A stretch of 64,000 nucleotides of DNA, from contig JBBSYF010000001.1 in the NCBI GenBank assembly GCA_038045405.1, forward strand, positions 101,175 through 165,174. The letters are read 5' to 3'. Numbering within the stretch: the first letter of the stretch is position 1; each line of letters opens with the position of its first letter. The translations under genes were made by a program, and so were the position numbers. Of this stretch, positions 4,690-63,350 are shown piece after piece. Source of the stretch: Nanobdellota archaeon. GTDB lineage: Archaea > Nanobdellota > Nanobdellia > Pacearchaeales > GW2011-AR1. The notes beneath the pieces were generated by a model that saw nothing but the letters and a program-made list of their open reading frames with translations, was not told where the DNA came from and made no database searches.

Positions 4690-5286
4690 TTACTTAAGAA
4701 GTCTTCGAAAACATTCTGCAGTCAATTTAGCATCAGTAAGAGCATTGTGAGCCTCTCCTTCTTTTATCACCTTCCCCTTTTCAACAACCCTCCGAGTATC
4801 TTTCAACCCGCAAAATTCCATAACACTAGGAAGATTCATATCACTTTTTCCTGTTTTTCCATCTTTCATTTTGAATTGCCCTTTTTTCTCCTTATACTTT
4901 AAACTAGCGAGAGTATGCAAATCTATTGTTCTAACACCTATCACTTCTGAGAATTTGTCTTTAATCCCCTATCGAATACATTTACTCTGTATAAAGATAA
5001 TATCAAAACCGACATTGTGTCCTGCAACTATTCTCTCATCGCATGTTTTACACCACTTCAAAAAATTTTCAATCATTTGTTTCTGACTCTGCTTTTTCTT
5101 GTCTCTTAAGTCCTCTTTTGTTTTTCCGATAACCATAAGAGCCTCTTCAGCAATTTCATCTTCATCGTCTATTCTACTCTCTTCAAGAAATACATTTTTT
5201 GGATTTTCAAACTCGACTGCTCCAATCTGCCAAATTCCACACCTTCCAGTGTCAAGCCCACTTGATTCAATATCTAAGACTATCAT
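4690..5286 (-). pseudogene. DEDDh (DnaQ-like) 3'-5' exonuclease interrupted by one in-frame TAG at 4969-4971
   Basis: Exo I DIESSG, Exo II HNVGFD and Exo III HNALTDA motifs lie in one continuous frame; the two listed ORFs share a frame and are separated only by a TAG. Confidence 0.6.
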
Positions 5287-5309
5287 TTTGTCATTTACCT
5301 ACCAAAACA

Positions 5310-5394
5310 TGCGGGCGAAAGGATTCGAACCTTCGAAGGCACTAAGCCAACAGATCTTGAGTCTGTCCCATTTGACCACTCTGGCACGCCCGCA
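5310..5394 (-). tRNA. tRNA-Leu(CAA), class II with a long variable arm
   Basis: The reverse complement GCGGGCGTGCCAGAGTGGTCAAATGGGACAGACTCAAGATCTGTT...GGTTCGAATCC...CGCCCGCA folds as a cloverleaf with anticodon loop CTCAAGA. Confidence 0.85.
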
Positions 5395-5478: not shown

Positions 5479-6201
5479 TTAAGCTTTATCTATCCCTTTC
5501 TGAACAGAAGTAAGGTCTTTCTTTAAGACTTCAACTGATTTCTTAAACATATCTTCAGGGCTCATCTGCCCGAAACTTTCCAGAGTAATCACAAGTTCAC
5601 TTTTTGTTTCAATTTCTGTCTTCTTTTTCTTTTTTTCTGCCACACCCTCGCAAAAATCAAGAATCTCATTCTTTTTGTTATCAATTATTACTATCTTGTT
5701 CCCCTTCTCCTTTATCTCATTTTCTGGAAAAACCCTTTTTACTTCATCATGAAATTCTTTGTCTAGTGTTATTTCTGAAATATTTCTGTAAAACATTAAT
5801 CCTGGAGAAAACTTTGAATGTTCCGAACCTTTTCCAGCTTTAACAAAAGCAACAAGTTGAAGTTCCTGTCCTTCAGAAAGTGTTGTGATTGGAATGTTTT
5901 CATAAACAACTTCGGGGGTTCCCTTTAAATCTCTAGAATATGCAGATCCTTCTTTTTTCACTTCTAACTTCAATTTACCCTCAGATTTCTCATTAACTGA
6001 CTTCTCAGTTTTTAATGGAATAAGAGCAATTCTATGTGCAACTGCTTCGTCGTACAAAGCAGAATCATTTCTTGAAATTTCAACTTCATCGACGGCCATT
6101 ACCAAAACCTGATTAAGATATCTCCTTATAGAATTTGCAAGAGTTTCGCTTATGTCTGCAGTGAAAACAATTTGATTTTCCGTTTTTTCAACTTTTTTCA
6201 T
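5479..6201 (-). CDS. rpoD: DNA-directed RNA polymerase subunit D (Rpb3 homologue)
   Basis: IRRYLNQVLVMAVDEVEI...AHRIALIPL dimerisation-domain motif; downstream of rps11, as in other archaea. Confidence 0.85.
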   Translation of the reverse strand: MKKVEKTENQIVFTADISETLANSIRRYLNQVLVMAVDEVEISRNDSALYDEAVAHRIALIPLKTEKSVNEKSEGKLKLEVKKEGSAYSRDLKGTPEVVYENIPITTLSEGQELQLVAFVKAGKGSEHSKFSPGLMFYRNISEITLDKEFHDEVKRVFPENEIKEKGNKIVIIDNKKNEILDFCEGVAEKKKKKTEIETKSELVITLESFGQMSPEDMFKKSVEVLKKDLTSVQKGIDKA

Positions 6202-6452
6202 ATTTTATTTGTAGCTCTCCTCACTATTATTTCATATTTGTTACCAACTTCATCTCTGAAGTTAGATACTAGGGTGTAACTCTTATATTTAGCAGTTACA
6301 TATTGAGAACCCCTTTCTAAACTTAAATATCTTGTTCCTCTTCTTTCTTTAATGGGACCCATTTCCATCATTATTTTATCCCCCTGTTCAACTATGGTGG
6401 CAATTGATGCTCTTACCCGGCGTTTTATTTGTTCTCTTGTTTCTTTGTCCAT
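6198..6452 (-). CDS. small hypothetical protein (84 aa) lying between rps11 and rpoD
   Basis: 84 aa ORF tightly coupled to its neighbours: it overlaps rpoD by 4 nt. I recognise no family. Confidence 0.4.
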   Translation of the reverse strand: MDKETREQIKRRVRASIATIVEQGDKIMMEMGPIKERRGTRYLSLERGSQYVTAKYKSYTLVSNFRDEVGNKYEIIVRRATNKI

Positions 6453-6498: not shown

Positions 6499-7050
6499 TT
6501 AAGGTCTTCTTCCTCTTCTTCCACCCTTTATCTTAGGTCCGCCTCTTGGGAAGCGAGTTGTATCAAGGATATTCAATACCTTGAAACCTTCTCTAGAAAG
6601 ACTTTTGATTATTGCATTAGCACCCGGCCCTGGCGCAGGATTCCTTGTTTTTGCTCTTATTCTGAAATATAAAGAACCAATACCTATCTCATGTAAATTT
6701 TCCGCAATTCTTTTTGCTATGAACATTGCAATTGTGGGATTTGCCTTAAGTCTCCCGTGTTTAGTAACCATCCCTCCAGTTACTTTAGCTAAAGTCTTTC
6801 CAGACATGTCTGTAACGTGAACGATAGTATTATTAAAAGAAGTGTAAATGTTTACAACAGCTTCAGCTTTTTTCTTCTCTTTTTCCTTTTTCTCTTTTGA
6901 TTCTCCCTTTTCTGAATTTCCTTCATCCGAGGATTCTTCGTCTTCTTCAGAACTAGTTTCTCCCCCGATTTTAATTTTAGAGACATCTTCTTTTTCTTCC
7001 TCAACAACCTTCCCTTTTTTCTTCTCTTTTTCAATTTTTTCTTCTTTCAT
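6499..7050 (-). CDS. rps11: 30S ribosomal protein S11 (uS11) with a long K/E-rich N-terminal extension
   Basis: Core NNT.V.VTD.SG....GG...KHGRLKA and NP...GPGA..AIK.L...G sequences, preceded by about 60 aa of low-complexity K/E/S-rich sequence. Confidence 0.85.
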   Translation of the reverse strand: MKEEKIEKEKKKGKVVEEEKEDVSKIKIGGETSSEEDEESSDEGNSEKGESKEKKEKEKKKAEAVVNIYTSFNNTIVHVTDMSGKTLAKVTGGMVTKHGRLKANPTIAMFIAKRIAENLHEIGIGSLYFRIRAKTRNPAPGPGANAIIKSLSREGFKVLNILDTTRFPRGGPKIKGGRRGRRP

Positions 7051-7541
7051 TTTTCATCTTCCTGAACTTCGCTATCTTGTTCTTTAACTTTTTTAACTTT
7101 TACCTTAAGAGATATCTTATCTTCCATGTCTACGGGAACAATGTAAGAAGGGCTGTCAATAGCATTCTTTCCAACTAAAACTTTTCTGTGAACAATTAAC
7201 TGTCTTGCTCCTTTTGGTGTTCGTGCCAGTTTTTTCTTCACCAAAACAGTTTGTAACCTTCTTTGAAGATAATCTGTTTTATCTAATGAAAGAACATCAG
7301 GAATTGAATTAACATTTAAACCAATTTCTTTAAGTCTATCGAATAATGCTTTTTGTTCTTCAGGCTTAGCTGAAATCAATTTTTTTGCCTTTTCTCTTAT
7401 TGATTTTACTCTTGCATCCGCTCTCCAGATTTCTCTTTTGTTTTTAAGCCCAAATTCTTCCTTTATTTTTGCTTCCTCTTCAAATCTCGCTTTGTCGAAA
7501 GGTCTTTTTGGTCTTGAATATTGTTTATGTTTTCTTTTCAT
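7047..7541 (-). CDS. rps4: 30S ribosomal protein S4 (uS4)
   Basis: N-terminal RPKRPFD...EEFGLKNKREIWR motif and an S4 RNA-binding domain. Confidence 0.85.
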   Translation of the reverse strand: MKRKHKQYSRPKRPFDKARFEEEAKIKEEFGLKNKREIWRADARVKSIREKAKKLISAKPEEQKALFDRLKEIGLNVNSIPDVLSLDKTDYLQRRLQTVLVKKKLARTPKGARQLIVHRKVLVGKNAIDSPSYIVPVDMEDKISLKVKVKKVKEQDSEVQEDEK

Positions 7542-8128
7542 TTTTTATTTGTAGTAGTTTTAAAATTTTCAGCTTTATTCTCAACTTTATCTTCAGTCTT
7601 TCCACGCTTCTTTATTCCCATACTCTTCGTTTTATTTTTTCTGAAGTGGCTCTTTGTTCTTTGCCCTCTTACAGGAAGATTTGCAGCGTGCCTTATTCCT
7701 CTGTAGCTCTTTATTTTCTTTAATCTTTTAATATCGAATTCTGTTTGTAACTCCAATCCGGTTCCAGTCAAGTGAAGATTTTTTCCAGTTTCAAAGTCCC
7801 TGTTTCTATTAAAAAGAAATTCAGGTATTTTTGGATTTTTTATGAATTCTGTAACCATCTTTATTTCTTCTTCCGTCAAAGAACCAATCTTTCTATTTTT
7901 GTCTATTTTTAACACATGGCATGTGGCGTTAGCTAAACTCCATGAAACACCGTTGATTTTAGTCAGCGCAGGATAAACTTTCATAGCTCCTTCTATGTCT
8001 TCAGACATCAATCTTACCATTTTCTCTCCGTATTTCTTCTCTTCTCTCATCTTATTAGCCATGTACTCTGATATCTCTGGCTTTTGATGAGGCACCTTCG
8101 TTTCTGGTTGTGATGTTTGTTTTTCCAT
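7538..8128 (-). CDS. rps13: 30S ribosomal protein S13 (uS13)
   Basis: SYRGIRHAANLPVRGQRTKSH motif. Confidence 0.85.
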   Translation of the reverse strand: MEKQTSQPETKVPHQKPEISEYMANKMREEKKYGEKMVRLMSEDIEGAMKVYPALTKINGVSWSLANATCHVLKIDKNRKIGSLTEEEIKMVTEFIKNPKIPEFLFNRNRDFETGKNLHLTGTGLELQTEFDIKRLKKIKSYRGIRHAANLPVRGQRTKSHFRKNKTKSMGIKKRGKTEDKVENKAENFKTTTNKK

Positions 8129-46789: not shown

Positions 46790-47104
46790 ATGGAACAGAT
46801 ACAAGTAAAGGGCATAGAATCTTTGGATGAAAAAGAGAAAAAAATAGCAGATAAACTCTTTGGAGAATACTTCACTAAACTTCAAAGAAAAATAAAAAAC
46901 ACTCTTTCACTAAAAATCTACGTAAAAGAATACAACAAAGAAGGAAAAAGAAAGAAATACAGCATAAATGCAGAAGCAGTTTCTTCTGGAAAAACCTTTA
47001 AGGCAAACTCTCACGAATGGGATTTTGCAACTACAATCCATCAAGTGTTTGAAAAAATATTAACACAAGTGGAGCATGAATTTCATGTTAGCGATCAACA
47101 TTAA
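46790..47104 (+). CDS. possible ribosome hibernation factor (HPF/RaiA-like) protein
   Basis: About 100 aa with a beta-alpha-beta-beta-beta-alpha-like pattern; the assignment is weak. Confidence 0.25.
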   Translation: MEQIQVKGIESLDEKEKKIADKLFGEYFTKLQRKIKNTLSLKIYVKEYNKEGKRKKYSINAEAVSSGKTFKANSHEWDFATTIHQVFEKILTQVEHEFHVSDQH

Positions 47105-50119: not shown

Positions 50120-50977
50120 TTATTTTTGGTTTGTTTTTCTTAAAGCATCAAAACCAGCTCCAACTAAATTGAAGGTGGTTCTTTGCTTACCGAAAGTTTT
50201 AGTATAAATATCTTTTATTCCTGCAAGTTTTAACATTTTTTTTAGTTCACCAGCTGCAACTAATCCTGTTCCTTGTGGTGCTGGAATCAAAATAACTCTC
50301 ACACTTCCAGACTTCCCAATAACTTTTTGCGGAACAGTATGAAGTTCAGAGCAGTCACAATCAAAACTAGAGCAAGCTCTTTTTATTTTTATAATATTCA
50401 GTTTTGCCTTTCTTTCTGCTTTGTCTCTTGCTGGTAGAGTTTCTTTTGCTTTACCTGTACCAATACCTACATGTCCATTTTCATCTCCAACAATTGCCAT
50501 TGCAGAAAAAGTAGCCACATTACCTTCCATAGTCTTCTTCTGAGTCTGACGCCACGCTCTTCTCTTACCTCCACCGAACTTCCCCTTTGCTTGTCCTATT
50601 AAAGCTAAGTCCTTTTTGATATCAAGTAAAAAATCAACTATCTCGAATTCCAATATCTTTTTGTTATTATCAAGAATTTCATCAATATTTCTAATCTTTC
50701 CATTTTTAACTTCTTGTCCTAATTTTGTTTTTGGTTCCCATGAAGAAAGACCTCTTTCTCCTGCTCTTTGTTTGTTTTCCTTTGTTTCTTTTTCTATAAT
50801 GCCTAACTCAAGGTCATCTTTTAAAATTACAAGATTATCATCTTTTTCTATTAATTCTTCAGTAATCTCTTCCAGCTTTTCAGCTTTTTCTTCGGCAGTT
50901 TCTTCAGAAAGTGTTCCATGAGCTGCAGCAGTTCTCTTTACATTCTCAAACATCAATTTCTTCTCACTTTTTGTCAT
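50120..50977 (-). CDS. rps5: 30S ribosomal protein S5 (uS5) with an acidic N-terminal extension
   Basis: Core KRRAWRQTQKKTMEGNVATFSAMAIVGD..GHVG.G.GKAKE and a C-terminal GTGLVAAG. Confidence 0.85.
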   Translation of the reverse strand: MTKSEKKLMFENVKRTAAAHGTLSEETAEEKAEKLEEITEELIEKDDNLVILKDDLELGIIEKETKENKQRAGERGLSSWEPKTKLGQEVKNGKIRNIDEILDNNKKILEFEIVDFLLDIKKDLALIGQAKGKFGGGKRRAWRQTQKKTMEGNVATFSAMAIVGDENGHVGIGTGKAKETLPARDKAERKAKLNIIKIKRACSSFDCDCSELHTVPQKVIGKSGSVRVILIPAPQGTGLVAAGELKKMLKLAGIKDIYTKTFGKQRTTFNLVGAGFDALRKTNQK

Positions 50978-55866: not shown

Positions 55867-56166
55867 CTATTCTTCTATTGACTCTTCGTCAAATCCGAGC
55901 CTGACAAGGACTTCCTTCACTTTCTTCCTGTGATCTCCTTGAAGCTCTACCATGTCGTCTTTATAAGTTCCACCGCACGCGAGCCCGTTTTTCAGGTCCT
56001 TTGCGACTTGTCTTATATCTATCCCACTTCCGAATCCAGTAATAACCGTTACTATCTTTCCGTATCTTTTCTTGTCTGTTGTTACTCTAATCTTCTGTGA
56101 ACTTTTTACAATCTGTTCACATACACATGCCTGTTTTGGCAGGCCACATTTTGGACATATCTCCAT
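55867..56166 (-). CDS. translation initiation factor aSUI1 (eIF1 homologue) with an N-terminal zinc ribbon
   Basis: ...VITGFGSGIDIRQVAKDLKNGLACGGTYKDDMVELQGDHRKKVKEVL..GF... Confidence 0.8.
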   Translation of the reverse strand: MEICPKCGLPKQACVCEQIVKSSQKIRVTTDKKRYGKIVTVITGFGSGIDIRQVAKDLKNGLACGGTYKDDMVELQGDHRKKVKEVLVRLGFDEESIEE

Positions 56167-57608: not shown

Positions 57609-58037
57609 TTATTTTTTAGACTTGGATTTACTTCCTTTGGTTGCTCCAATACCTGCTTTACTGTGCTTTACTCTTGATCTTGTTAAGGCGAATTCTCCAA
57701 AGGTATGCCCTATCATTTCTCCAATTACGATGACTGGAAAAAATGTTTTTCCATTATGCATATCAATTTTCATTCCAACCATTTCTGGGACTATGATGAG
57801 ATCTCTTTGATGAGTTCTTATTGGTTTACCCTTACTTATCTTGACTTTTGCTCTGTTAACAAAATCTTCAATCACTTGGAACTGTCTAAGAACCGTTCTT
57901 CTCTGTCTTGCCTTTAAATATTTAGCAAACTCTCTAACGTCGAGTTTTTTAAGCTCTTCAAGACTTTTACCTCTGTATGTAAAGTCCTTCTTCTTCAGTT
58001 CTACTATTTCCGTTTCTTCGTTTTCCATTTTATCCAT
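57609..58037 (-). CDS. rps19: 30S ribosomal protein S19 (uS19)
   Basis: ...HNGK.F..V.V...MIGH.FGEFA.TR... Confidence 0.85.
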   Translation of the reverse strand: MDKMENEETEIVELKKKDFTYRGKSLEELKKLDVREFAKYLKARQRRTVLRQFQVIEDFVNRAKVKISKGKPIRTHQRDLIIVPEMVGMKIDMHNGKTFFPVIVIGEMIGHTFGEFALTRSRVKHSKAGIGATKGSKSKSKK

Positions 58038-58728
58038 GATACCCCGTTTGTTTTGGTCTTAAGTGTCCAACTCTTCTTCCTGGAGGAGCGTTTCTCTTTG
58101 CAATCTTACTCTTTGGATTCTTTCCTCTACCAGAGCCGAATGGGTGATCGATAACATTCATTTTAACTGCAGAAGTTCTTGGCCATAATTTTCCTCTGGA
58201 AGTTTTTATGTGGAAGTTTTTACCGGCCTTCAATATTGGTTTGTCTAGTCTTCCTGCTCCAGCAACAACTCCAATAAATGCTCGACATCTTTTATGGAAG
58301 CTTTTTTCTTTTTTCGAAGGCATTAAAACATAAACTTCTTCCCCAACAACTTTGTTAACAACCCCGTAACTTCCAGCAGTTTTTATGAAAACTCCGCCGT
58401 CACCAGGTCTAGACTCTATATTGTAAACCTGTGTTTTTATAGGAATATTTCCTAGCTCCAGAAGATTTCCTTCTGCAACAGTTTCCCCGCTGAGATTTAT
58501 CTTTTGTCCTTCTACCATTCCTTTGAATGCCGGCATGTAAAAGATACCCTTGCTGTAAATAATCTTAGCTAAGGGGGCAGTGTGAGCTGGGGAGTTTACT
58601 AATTTCAAAACAGTTCCTTCTCCTGAAAGTTTTGAAGGATATGTAACTTCGAATCTGAAAGCTCTTCTTCTAACTCTGTAGGTTCCGCTTCCGTGTCCTC
58701 GTGCTTGTGATACAATTCTTTTACCCAT
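58030..58728 (-). CDS. rpl2: 50S ribosomal protein L2 (uL2)
   Basis: ...GRNAPPGRRVGH... and conserved SH3-like/OB regions. Confidence 0.9.
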   Translation of the reverse strand: MGKRIVSQARGHGSGTYRVRRRAFRFEVTYPSKLSGEGTVLKLVNSPAHTAPLAKIIYSKGIFYMPAFKGMVEGQKINLSGETVAEGNLLELGNIPIKTQVYNIESRPGDGGVFIKTAGSYGVVNKVVGEEVYVLMPSKKEKSFHKRCRAFIGVVAGAGRLDKPILKAGKNFHIKTSRGKLWPRTSAVKMNVIDHPFGSGRGKNPKSKIAKRNAPPGRRVGHLRPKQTGYHG

Positions 58729-59046
58729 TTAAGAATACTTTGCCTCCAATTCTTTCATCAATAATTTATATTCGGATAATAGTTCAGGGTCCATGTTTGC
58801 ACTACCATAAGTCACCACATTTGCAAGAGTATGCTCGTCCAAGGTTAAATGTCTCTTTGATAATCTGCGAACACTTTCTCTGCCAAACTTAATCTTATGA
58901 ACAAGTCTTGATGTTGATGACCCACTGGTTGCTGCAATTATCTCAACAGTTCCATCTCCGTCTTTTCTGCTGCAATATCCCATCCCATAACCAGCGACGG
59001 ACATCTTGCTTCCCACTTTTATATCTTCAAATTTAATTACATTCAT
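58729..59046 (-). CDS. hypothetical 105-aa protein inserted between rpl23 and rpl2
   Basis: The ORF is directly abutted by the rpl23 stop and the rpl2 start, which implies co-transcription. Family not recognised. Confidence 0.4.
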   Translation of the reverse strand: MNVIKFEDIKVGSKMSVAGYGMGYCSRKDGDGTVEIIAATSGSSTSRLVHKIKFGRESVRRLSKRHLTLDEHTLANVVTYGSANMDPELLSEYKLLMKELEAKYS

Positions 59047-59047
59047 T

Positions 59048-59296
59048 TTATATTATCCCAAGTTTCGTAGCTATGTCTAAAGCTGGAAACTCCTTCTTTA
59101 ATTTAACATAAGCAAACTTCTTGTTGTCTTTAACCAATGTTCTAATTTTTTCAACTTTAACATCGAACAAAGATTCAATTTCTTTTTTTATGCTTTCTTT
59201 TGTTGCTGCTTTCTCTGTTTTAAATGTAAGAACATTTTCTCTTTCGATAAGCATAACTGCTTTTTCTGTTACTATTGGTTTTAAATTGAAGTTCAT
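59048..59296 (-). CDS. rpl23: 50S ribosomal protein L23 (uL23)
   Basis: ...KPIVTEKA......N.L.F.V...A.K..IK.....F.VKV.. Confidence 0.8.
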   Translation of the reverse strand: MNFNLKPIVTEKAVMLIERENVLTFKTEKAATKESIKKEIESLFDVKVEKIRTLVKDNKKFAYVKLKKEFPALDIATKLGII

Positions 59297-61772: not shown

Positions 61773-63350
61773 TTATTCATCTCGTTTTGCTCTCACTGCA
61801 GCTAATTTTTTGTTTAATTCTTCCATATCTTTTTGTATTTTTTCTTCCTCATCGAATGCTCTCATAATCTCTCCTGTTCTTCTCAAAATCATATCTCTCA
61901 GCACAAAAATCCTGCTCTTATCCTCGCCCCTCTCTTTTACCATAATCTCAGCAATACCTTCAGCAATGTTAATTGTAGCGTAGAATATTGAATCTTTTGT
62001 TGCAGAGAAAGCAGGGAAAATTACGTTTGTAAATATTTCAATACCTTTCTCATCACTTAAAGAAACTTGCTTTACTATGCTCTTGTCTTCTAAATCGACA
62101 AACTTGTGGGTGTATCTAAACTTTTTCCCATTAATTGTGAGTTCATATTTTTTCTTATTATGTGTTTTTTTTGGATTTCTTTCCCTTTCTGTTTCTGGTT
62201 CTTTGACTTCTTGGATAACTGAAACCTCTTGCCGTTCTCTCTTTTCTATTTCAGTGTCTATTTTTTTATTTTTTCCACTCTGACTCAGAGGAGTTGCATA
62301 ACTTTTTAGTTCAGGTGTGTTTTTGATGGCTCTCGCAATTATATCCTCCTGGACACTCATTTTTTCTTCCAAAGCAGGGCTAATTTTTGAAACTGTATCG
62401 TATTTCCTTGCTTTAGCCAAAAAGGGCTTTACCTGTTCCCTCATTTTAGTTTCAAACTCAAAATACTCTCCAGACTCTTTAATCCACTCTCTTTTGTTGT
62501 GTGTAACAGGTATACCTTCAACAAAAATTTCTCCTGCAATTCTTCTAGCATCTGGGTGAGGACTGAATCCTATTTTATCATGTTGTGTAATCAGTCTGTT
62601 GTGCCTATAAGTGTTAAAACCATAAAATCCTTTATTTCCTGAATAACCACTTTTCATCAAACCAATCCAACCTTTTATTACTCCTCCACTAGACAATTTA
62701 AAAGAAAATTCTGACTTTCCATCTTCGGTAAGCTCCTGTTCTACAGGGAGACATAAACTATTGTTAACCTTTAATATTATTTCACCACTAGAGATATAAG
62801 GTCCGAATCTTAACGCCAAATCTTCTTTCACATTAGTTACCAAGTTAGGGTAATATTTAATTTTCAACTTATCAACAGTAATTTTAGTGCCAGTTTCATT
62901 AGGGGATGTCTTTTGAATTCTCATTGGATGCTTATTCCAATCTCCCCTTTTTAACCAATCATCTTCGTCAAATTCTAAAACAAATCTTTTATCATTCTTT
63001 CTTTGTGTGGTATCAATAACAAATCTTTTTCCTAAACTCTGACAAGATGTTTTCAGACCCAAACCAAACTCTCCTAACTTGTTCTTTTTTTCAGAGTGGG
63101 CTAATTTTAGAGATTTAGCTGCGTTGTTTTCGTCCATTCCCATCCCATCATCATTTACTTCAATAAAATCTTTATTCAACAAAATATTCACATTAAGCAC
63201 TGCATCATCAAATCTGGCATCTATTGAATTGTCGACCAGTTCCGAGATTGCCTGACTAACACTATATCCTGCCTGACCAATTTTTGGCATTAAACTTTTG
63301 TCAGGAGTTATGTCAATCTGTTTGATTTCATCTGTTTCTGTGTTTTGCAT
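61773..63350 (-). CDS. GHKL-superfamily ATPase (MORC/paraMORC-like HATPase_c)
   Basis: Bergerat-fold motifs: N box ELVDNSIDA, G1 box DDGMGMD, G2 box GEFGLGLKTS. A C-terminal region of about 200 aa has unknown function. Confidence 0.65.
   Translation of the reverse strand: MQNTETDEIKQIDITPDKSLMPKIGQAGYSVSQAISELVDNSIDARFDDAVLNVNILLNKDFIEVNDDGMGMDENNAAKSLKLAHSEKKNKLGEFGLGLKTSCQSLGKRFVIDTTQRKNDKRFVLEFDEDDWLKRGDWNKHPMRIQKTSPNETGTKITVDKLKIKYYPNLVTNVKEDLALRFGPYISSGEIILKVNNSLCLPVEQELTEDGKSEFSFKLSSGGVIKGWIGLMKSGYSGNKGFYGFNTYRHNRLITQHDKIGFSPHPDARRIAGEIFVEGIPVTHNKREWIKESGEYFEFETKMREQVKPFLAKARKYDTVSKISPALEEKMSVQEDIIARAIKNTPELKSYATPLSQSGKNKKIDTEIEKRERQEVSVIQEVKEPETERERNPKKTHNKKKYELTINGKKFRYTHKFVDLEDKSIVKQVSLSDEKGIEIFTNVIFPAFSATKDSIFYATINIAEGIAEIMVKERGEDKSRIFVLRDMILRRTGEIMRAFDEEEKIQKDMEELNKKLAAVRAKRDE

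Follow-up and report, generated by a model that had tools for sequence, protein, structure and literature searches.

Why does a gene without recognisable relatives stand between rpl23 and rpl2, in the most conserved operon of an archaeal genome? The question arises from a 64,000-nucleotide (nt) stretch of contig JBBSYF010000001.1, here called the window, which derives from a Pacearchaeota-like DPANN archaeon. The S10/spc operon is commonly regarded as an unchanging unit of the genome, whose gene order serves as a marker in phylogenomics and in metagenome binning. An original prediction, made from the letters of the window, pointed to an open reading frame (ORF) of 105 amino acids (aa) between these two ribosomal protein (r-protein) genes and described it as an unrecognised insertion into an otherwise invariant gene order. 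We refer to this ORF as X105. The analyses described here indicate that X105 is probably a lineage-restricted accessory passenger gene lodged at the L23/L2 junction of the S10-type operon, as one of a clade-wide class of ORFs defined by their position.

The X105 locus and its coding signals

X105 occupies positions 58729..59046 on the minus strand and encodes 105 aa from ATG to TAA, as determined from the ORF listing, the sequence and the boundaries relative to insert-free relatives. The coordinates and translation quoted in the original prediction matched ours; the strand had not been stated there. X105 is preceded by rpl23 (uL23; 59048..59296, minus strand, 82 aa; Pfam Ribosomal_L23, E = 1e-13) and followed by rpl2 (uL2; 58030..58728, minus strand, 232 aa; Pfam Ribosomal_L2_C, E = 1.6e-34). 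It had been said to abut both genes, and the contacts are indeed tight. A single base separates the L23 TAA (59048-59050) from the X105 ATG (59044-59046) in a TAA-A-ATG junction (59044..59050, minus strand), and the X105 TAA (58729-58731) touches the L2 ATG (58726-58728) with a spacer of 0 nt (TAA-ATG; 58726..58731, minus strand). Where relatives lack an insert, the L23/L2 junction reads ...ATA-TAA-A-ATG-GGN-AAA..., with the same TAA-A-ATG, and the insert therefore consists of exactly one ORF of 318 nt.

An open frame of 105 codons would arise by chance with P ~3.5e-4 at the local base composition. The G+C content (GC) of the X105 codon positions followed the order GC1 > GC2 > GC3, a coding pattern seen in the neighbouring genes as well, and both the overall GC (0.377) and GC3 (0.33) fell inside the range of those genes. 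The codon-preference score of X105 was low at 0.09, as compared with 0.04 for SUI1 and 0.11 for S4e. More than 20 contigs, assembled independently from several samples, carry the same ORF in the same place, which argues that it is not an assembly artefact, and its frame was intact on all contigs examined. A structured RNA instead of a gene was ruled out by an Rfam scan of the DNA (E <= 1), in which one spurious long noncoding RNA match was found elsewhere in the operon, and by a folding z-score of +0.23, with 57 of 100 shuffles folding equally well or better. On these sequence features X105 is best read as a genuine protein-coding gene that is translated as part of the operon.

Candidate translation signals were observed at both ends of the ORF. 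A Shine-Dalgarno (SD)-like GGGA (59056..59059, minus strand) lies within the last codons of L23 ('...LGII'), at -13..-10 before the X105 ATG, and an SD core sequence, GGAGG (58743..58747, minus strand), is embedded in the last codons of X105 itself (L-E-A), at -19..-15 and 14 nt before the L2 ATG. In the closest sampled relative, RIFCSPHIGHO2_12_FULL_34_15 (83% L2 identity; L003 in our numbering of loci and contigs), the L23/L2 junction is insert-free and the equivalent L23 codons, which there precede L2, spell GGAGTGAT. Since the SD of L23 serves L2 in insert-free relatives and a GGAGG is present in X105, the insert seems to capture the native ribosome-binding site of L2 and to supply a replacement. 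X105 must be co-transcribed with the operon because there is no room for a promoter or terminator of its own. The original prediction had argued for translational coupling, and the tight stop/start junctions together with the SD motifs are consistent with translation within the operon. Ribosomes would translate L23, then X105 and then L2 by SD-assisted re-initiation, X105 would be produced at roughly r-protein levels, and translation of L2 would now depend on signals within X105. A truncated or imprecisely deleted X105 would then be costly, which would help to keep the frame open.

X105 is an orphan restricted to one species-level population. One protein, 98% identical, was the sole match in each of two large searches, one of them word-indexed and covering 5.8 billion proteins, the other a full HMMER pass over 1.84 billion cluster representatives. 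Its 90% cluster comprises three haplotypes, all intact, which differ solely by I9V and S58N and are labelled 'hypothetical protein [Nanoarchaeota archaeon]' at NCBI. The contigs with X105 derive from Hainich groundwater (wells H43 and H51) and from a small number of further samples, and all of them have the order L23-X105-L2. No Pfam family was matched at E <= 1, NCBIfam yielded noise only, PHROGs gave no match, and the best hit among PDB sequences (E = 0.39) was to unrelated proteins. A scan of viral contigs found no relative of X105 and a scan of metagenomes recovered the same population only. Within the window there are no paralogues, nor is X105 similar to an 84-aa ORF upstream of L3. Weak tblastn matches (best E = 0.36), all in the C-terminal domain of relatives' L2, raised the idea of a diverged partial L2 duplicate, which was rejected: the L2 profile scored X105 at 0.9 bits, a value equalled by 56 of 1000 shuffles, and ten further r-protein profiles fitted no better.

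The gene was thus rightly called unrecognised, having no family, structure or homologue beyond one population. A look into sister genomes had been proposed, and X105 proved absent from all sampled relatives beyond that population. Absence from close relatives combined with atypical codon usage had been named as the sign of a recent junk insertion; the absence was borne out, whereas the codon usage of X105 is not clearly atypical.

Junction ORFs in related genomes

Relatives were found by way of the L2 protein among metagenome-assembled genomes (MAGs) of Pacearchaeota, Woesearchaeota and Nanoarchaeota, and 80 loci, all on MAG contigs, were compared. Gaps between genes were located by tblastn of the window's r-proteins on these loci, and a gap of at least 150 bp was counted as an insert. 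The L23/L2 junction is empty in 61 of 78 relatives, including L003, and has a gap of 190-460 bp in the other 17, each occupied by a same-strand ORF (64-149 aa) that is unlike X105. Inserts were also detected at L3/L4 (24/73 loci), L4/L23 (21/77), S17/L14 (11/66), L2/S19 (9/77), L22/S3 (7), S19/L22 (5) and S3/L29 (4). The counts for S19/L22, L22/S3 and L4/L23 may include terminal extensions of r-proteins, and those for L23/L2 and L3/L4 are clean. As many as 97 of 101 inserts consist of a same-strand ORF that spans essentially the whole gap. Of the 80 relatives, 46 had one or more clean inserts in the stretch from L3 to L14, for a total of 89, of which 72 are ORFs of 60-180 aa. The order L3-L4-L23-L2-S19, which the original prediction took to be invariant and uninterrupted, is therefore neither in this clade. 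An apparent loss of L2, S19 and L22 in L090 was traced to a run of Ns in the scaffold and was disregarded. No description of such junction ORFs was found in a limited search of the literature.

The inserts were found to be heterogeneous. Eighteen of those at L4/L23 form one family of ~210 aa, an RNase_T/DEDD exonuclease, and those at L23/L2 include a HAD hydrolase and small helical proteins. The other ~75 small junction ORFs had no match in Pfam or PHROGs, and neither X105 nor any of four other junction ORFs matched a PADLOC defence model. When clustered with phmmer, 57 of 78 small ORFs remained singletons. Family A comprises 24 members with invariant residues, of which four divergent ones were checked and all sit at L3/L4, and family B has only five members among the 5.8 billion proteins. 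In four small families the junction varies from genome to genome. Family B members lie at L23/L2 in L036 and L047, and in L035 and L057 they lie at L22/S3; the others are found at L3/L4 in L007 and L23/L2 in L041, at L3/L4 in L008 and L23/L2 in L019, and at L2/S19 in L009 and L22/S3 in L051. The inserts are scattered over a concatenated r-protein tree, and sister genomes are unlike, with five inserts in L029 and none in L040, and three in L008 and none in L012. The window itself has an insert at L23/L2 only, and its sister L003 has inserts at L3/L4 and S17/L14. Junction ORFs also occur on L088, a JGI metagenome contig with an unrelated 96-aa ORF at L23/L2 (4384-4674, plus strand) and a family A ORF at L3/L4, and the pattern thus reaches beyond GTDB representative genomes. 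Carriers of the L4/L23 exonuclease were richer in small junction ORFs (16/18 vs. 28/62; Fisher p = 0.001, kinship ignored), and some lineages appear to be generally permissive for operon inserts.

We also scored SD-like tetramers at -18..-5 before the start codons of these loci. Such tetramers precede 78 of 96 insert starts (81%), in this case within the final codons of the r-protein gene upstream, and 58 of 90 starts of r-protein genes downstream of inserts (64%), in this case within the final codons of the insert. The background was 19% at random ATGs and 15% (14/96) at a point 30 nt further inside the inserts, and L3, the first gene of the operon, has an SD-like tetramer before just 1 of 31 starts. 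Over the 15 nt before starts, a G-rich peak at about -14 to -11 is followed by an A-rich tract that leads up to the ATG. A C-terminal 'E-(A/S)-G-(L/K)-stop' motif is enriched among the inserts (13 vs. 4.3 +/- 2.1 in shuffles). It was rejected as proof of a protein superfamily and reflects largely a nucleotide-level constraint, because it embeds the SD of the next gene.

The original prediction listed a lineage-specific ribosomal or ribosome-associated protein as its first candidate, which would imply that X105 acts on the ribosome. Unassigned ORFs of archaeal r-protein operons have later proved to be r-proteins or translation factors, SUI1 resides in this very operon, and X105 is tightly coupled within it, mildly basic (isoelectric point, pI, 9.0) and predicted to form a small beta-rich domain with a helix. 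Its distribution is at odds with such a role, in that X105 is confined to one species-level population and L003 and 60 other relatives are empty at L23/L2. The remaining junction ORFs are unrelated to one another and for the most part acidic or neutral, the class as a whole being soluble, with a median length of 104 aa (interquartile range 89-114) and a median pI of 6.1. X105 is also less basic than the r-proteins of the operon, which have a pI of 9.6-10.7 and a lysine plus arginine fraction of 0.19-0.29, as compared with 0.15 in X105. No r-protein family or PDB ribosome chain was matched, L14e, L21e and L35Ae types included, and the variants of X105, described below, lean nonsynonymous, unlike those of r-proteins. 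Based on distribution, homology, composition and substitutions, we consider a ribosomal protein quite unlikely. Identity with SUI1 (PF01253), Rpp29 (PF01868) or an L14e-type protein was rejected as well, having no family or fold support and not fitting a position at L23/L2 rather than L29/S17.

A second early candidate was a domesticated mobile-element or intein-like remnant, which could be an intein/Hint fragment, a free-standing homing endonuclease or an integron-type cassette. Relatives differ in whether they have an insert, and families shift between junctions, as might be expected of mobile DNA, and a 'KxG..V' beta-strand start occurs near the N-terminus of X105. However, neither Pfam nor the PDB fold search revealed a Hint, LAGLIDADG, HNH or GIY-YIG domain, and X105 is free-standing, with its own start and stop between an intact L23 and an intact L2. 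The 0-1 nt of non-coding DNA per side leaves no space for an attC-like site, and the operon contains no integrase. There was no target-site duplication (insert ends match at 6.0/15 positions within a locus and 6.15 between loci), no repeat shared by insert ends beyond the generic SD/stop/start motif, and no viral or PHROG relative. A mobile-element remnant is, in our estimation, highly improbable. Defence, phage or viral origins were likewise discarded, since nothing was found in PADLOC, PHROGs, BFVD folds or the scans of viral contigs.

A more speculative scheme treats the junction ORFs, X105 among them, as an exchangeable, cassette-like pool, in which each ORF would seize the upstream SD, bring a replacement for the gene downstream and so fit any 'SD-stop-start' junction of r-protein or RNA polymerase operons. 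Such ORFs could pass from one related genome to another through recombination in the ultra-conserved r-protein genes on either side. We consider this scheme unlikely.

Predicted fold, evolutionary rate and origin

A single-sequence AlphaFold2 model of X105 had a mean predicted local distance difference test score (pLDDT) of 78 and a predicted template modelling score (pTM) of 0.66, and comprises seven beta-strands and two helices, one short and one at the C-terminus (residues 87-104). The predicted product is soluble and mildly basic, with a long C-terminal helix in addition to the seven beta-strands. Foldseek searches with this model found nothing significant in PDB (best E = 0.63) or BFVD (best E = 0.5). 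The family B model (pLDDT 83, pTM 0.78) has the same element order at nearly the same positions, and it too has no significant PDB neighbour. Both models share weak, non-significant matches to levivirus coat protein and Pur-alpha (E >= 0.3, template modelling scores 0.2-0.35), a modelled resemblance that we treat as a lead only. A small nucleic-acid-binding protein of OB/PRC-like type had been among the early suggestions; the X105 model is beta-rich, without a significant fold match.

The likeness of the two models is relevant to another explanation, by which X105 is a fast-diverged orthologue of one ancestral L23/L2 gene, shared with the 101-108 aa ORFs of family B and others and lost precisely on many occasions. 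Eight of 18 L23/L2 ORFs are 101-108 aa long, the models share the same weak fold matches, and the secondary-structure strings of X105 and family B align at a score of 50, far above shuffles (6.3 +/- 13; 0 of 2000 segment shuffles reach 50). Insert identity is 86% where that of the flanks is 93-97%, and at such rates sequence similarity would be erased across the distances between these genomes. Profile comparisons were less favourable: hhalign of X105 against deeper family A and family B profiles gave probabilities of 0.1-0.4, with 0.1 for X105 and family B, and the family A hidden Markov model scored X105 at 1.3 bits, inside the shuffle range (equalled by 131 of 1000). Pairwise Smith-Waterman z-scores of 4.4-5.9 had hinted at kinship with family A or with the ORF of L075, which was rejected, and iterative profile merging of the junction families merged nothing at E < 1e-3. 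The scattered inserts and differing sisters would require many exact deletions, some L23/L2 inserts are plainly other proteins, such as the HAD hydrolase and the small helical proteins, and the X105 model is of modest reliability. Common descent from one L23/L2 gene is possible on this evidence, but we think it doubtful.

Evolutionary rates were estimated by the Nei-Gojobori method as the ratio of nonsynonymous to synonymous rates (dN/dS) in homologous inserts and in the flanking r-protein genes, from few sites or with saturated dS. The ratio was 0.43 for the inserts of L078/L080 (flanks ~0.1), 0.71 for those of L035/L057 (flanks 0.10-0.18) and 0.41-0.47 for distant family A pairs (flanks ~0.1), and a 141-aa enzyme-like insert had an ordinary dN/dS of 0.10. 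The closest pair consists of the family A ORFs at L3/L4 in L026 and L053 (2661-2945 in both), with an insert dN/dS of 3.7 and 0.13-0.19 in the flanks. Here the insert dS was 0.018 as compared with 0.10-0.22 in the flanks and the insert dN 0.064 as compared with 0.012-0.041, a pattern that could reflect positive selection, a recent transfer of the insert or synonymous-site constraint. In X105 itself, the window and L001 differ by 2 nonsynonymous and 0 synonymous changes, vs. 3 and 18 over ~2,150 r-protein codons (Fisher p = 0.04). When more strains were included the figures were 2 and 1, vs. 1 and 5 in 725 flanking codons, and with numbers this small the nonsynonymous lean is a trend only. Taken together, the junction ORFs change several-fold faster in protein sequence than their neighbours, yet they are not obviously unconstrained.

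On another view the X105 protein is irrelevant, the ORF being a neutral or selfish spacer, possibly a de novo or decayed insert. It would remain open only because the L2 start is reached by ribosomes that translate through it, and selection would act on the open frame and the SD, not on the protein sequence. X105 is an orphan whose variation stands at 2 nonsynonymous vs. 0-1 synonymous changes, dN/dS is raised across the class, the recurrent C-terminal motif is accounted for by the embedded SD, and the junction ORFs always fill their gap exactly. A spacer would not be expected to yield a pLDDT of 78 with a regular seven-strand-plus-helix architecture, or of 83 in family B, and random or newborn ORFs seldom score as high as 78-83. 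Nor does it fit with residues that are invariant across the 24 members of family A, with class dN/dS below 1 at moderate distances, or with the gene-like base composition of the X105 codon positions. The X105 and family B models, the conserved residues of family A and the dN/dS values below 1 at moderate distance argue that some members of the class are functional proteins, and we regard a mere spacer as unlikely.

Some points weigh against an accessory passenger gene as the explanation of X105. Only three X105 variants are available, two of them amino-acid-changing, and they cannot tell weak constraint from none. Membership in the class rests on position and not on demonstrated homology, so that inference from the other junction ORFs to X105 is weak. 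Only one of five X105 models was confident (pLDDT 78, followed by 61, 54, 50 and 50), and the SD of L2 lies 14 nt from its ATG, farther than the class mode of ~10 nt. Our best guess is that the passenger gene encodes a dispensable, fast-evolving accessory protein, which possibly binds nucleic acid or another protein. Such genes may have been acquired independently from a gene pool that is unsampled, may have moved from one junction to another, or may descend by extreme divergence from a few ancestral junction genes.

Other features of the window and comparison with known systems

A second ORF of the same positional class lies in the S13-S4-S11-RpoD-L18e-L13-S9 cluster of the window. This 84-aa orphan (6198..6452, minus strand) separates S11 from RpoD; it ends in a TGA that overlaps the RpoD ATG (ATGA) and has GAGGAG within its last codons. 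It has no Pfam or PADLOC match and forms a singleton 90% cluster. The ORF is preceded by a 49-nt AT-rich spacer with TTTAAATA ~21 nt upstream of the ATG, a possible archaeal TATA box for a leaderless start. The other insert of this cluster is an RNase_T/DEDD exonuclease gene (4693..5286, minus strand), located between tRNA-Leu(CAA) (5309..5394, minus strand) and L18e. It belongs to the family that is found at L4/L23 in 18 of 77 relatives, and a single in-frame TAG in place of a conserved Tyr (CIR*GIKDKF in the window, CLKYGINDKF in relatives) splits it into ORFs of 105 and 84 aa. The TAG could be a read-through stop or an error of sequencing, or the gene could have become a pseudogene recently.

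The region directly upstream of L3 (61197..63994, minus strand) is an island that differs wholly in the strain contigs L001 and L083, which are otherwise 99.7% identical. It encodes a MORC-like GHKL ATPase (61773..63350, minus strand; HATPase_c_3 and Morc6_S5; PADLOC MzaB, E = 3e-7), the 84-aa ORF upstream of L3 mentioned above, a 66-aa membrane protein and a 185-aa ORF without a match, and is strain-variable and possibly related to defence. Elsewhere, a 104-aa protein (46790..47104, plus strand) gave a borderline match to Ribosomal_S30AE (E = 1e-4; 23.5 bits vs. a cut-off of 23.7). This hibernation factor domain (HPF/RaiA) is typically bacterial and would be unusual in an archaeon if real. 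Long N-terminal extensions of ~50-80 aa, rich in lysine and glutamate and outside the conserved domains, were observed in L22 (57040..57606), S11 (6502..7050), S5 (50120..50977) and S13 (7538..8128). L2 is of full length (232 aa), yet its N-terminal Ribosomal_L2 domain (PF00181) was undetected at E <= 1, which suggests that this domain is unusually divergent.

The S10/spc block appears permeable in one large DPANN clade, where more than half of the sampled genomes carry precise, fast-evolving and mostly orphan inserts of ~100 codons between essential r-protein genes, each of which would provide the ribosome-binding site of the gene that follows. If our interpretation is correct, the junction ORFs offer a natural setting in which to study how genes that are new or foreign come to be expressed inside essential operons without breaking them, and for the origin and turnover of orphan proteins in very small genomes. 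Such ORFs may be miscalled or skipped by annotation pipelines and marker-gene tools in which r-protein genes are taken to be contiguous. For X105, the attractive idea of a new ribosomal protein is removed as unsupported. Were the cassette pool real, it would mean that fast-evolving small proteins, perhaps engaged in conflict or ribosome modulation, are expressed at r-protein levels in promoter-poor DPANN genomes.

Several known systems resemble X105 in part. SUI1/aIF1 and Rpp29, residents of the archaeal S10/spc operons, are likewise small, encoded between r-protein genes and co-expressed with them, but they are conserved across archaea, belong to recognisable families and hold fixed positions, none of which is true of X105; SUI1 is separately present in the window between L29 and S17 (55867..56166). 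The coupled cistrons of r-protein mRNAs share with X105 the stop/start distance of 0-1 nt and an SD within the upstream coding sequence, a likeness that would concern how X105 is expressed and not what it is. The levivirus coat protein and PUR repeat binders have the same order of elements as the X105 model, about seven antiparallel strands followed by a C-terminal helix, which points to a predicted resemblance and not to membership. X105 resembles DPANN ORFans in being small, fast-evolving, hypothetical and without a homologue outside one species-level population. It differs from them by its residence in the genome's most conserved operon instead of a variable island, by its exact stop/start abutment and by the embedded SD for the next essential gene. 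Phage morons also stand between conserved syntenic genes, and like the junction ORFs they are polymorphic for presence, heterogeneous and mostly without an assigned function. Classical morons have their own promoter and terminator and often a deviant composition, whereas X105 has neither, is of ordinary composition and relies for its expression on the host operon, in a genome that is cellular and not viral. In behaviour, phage morons are nevertheless the closest counterparts of X105.

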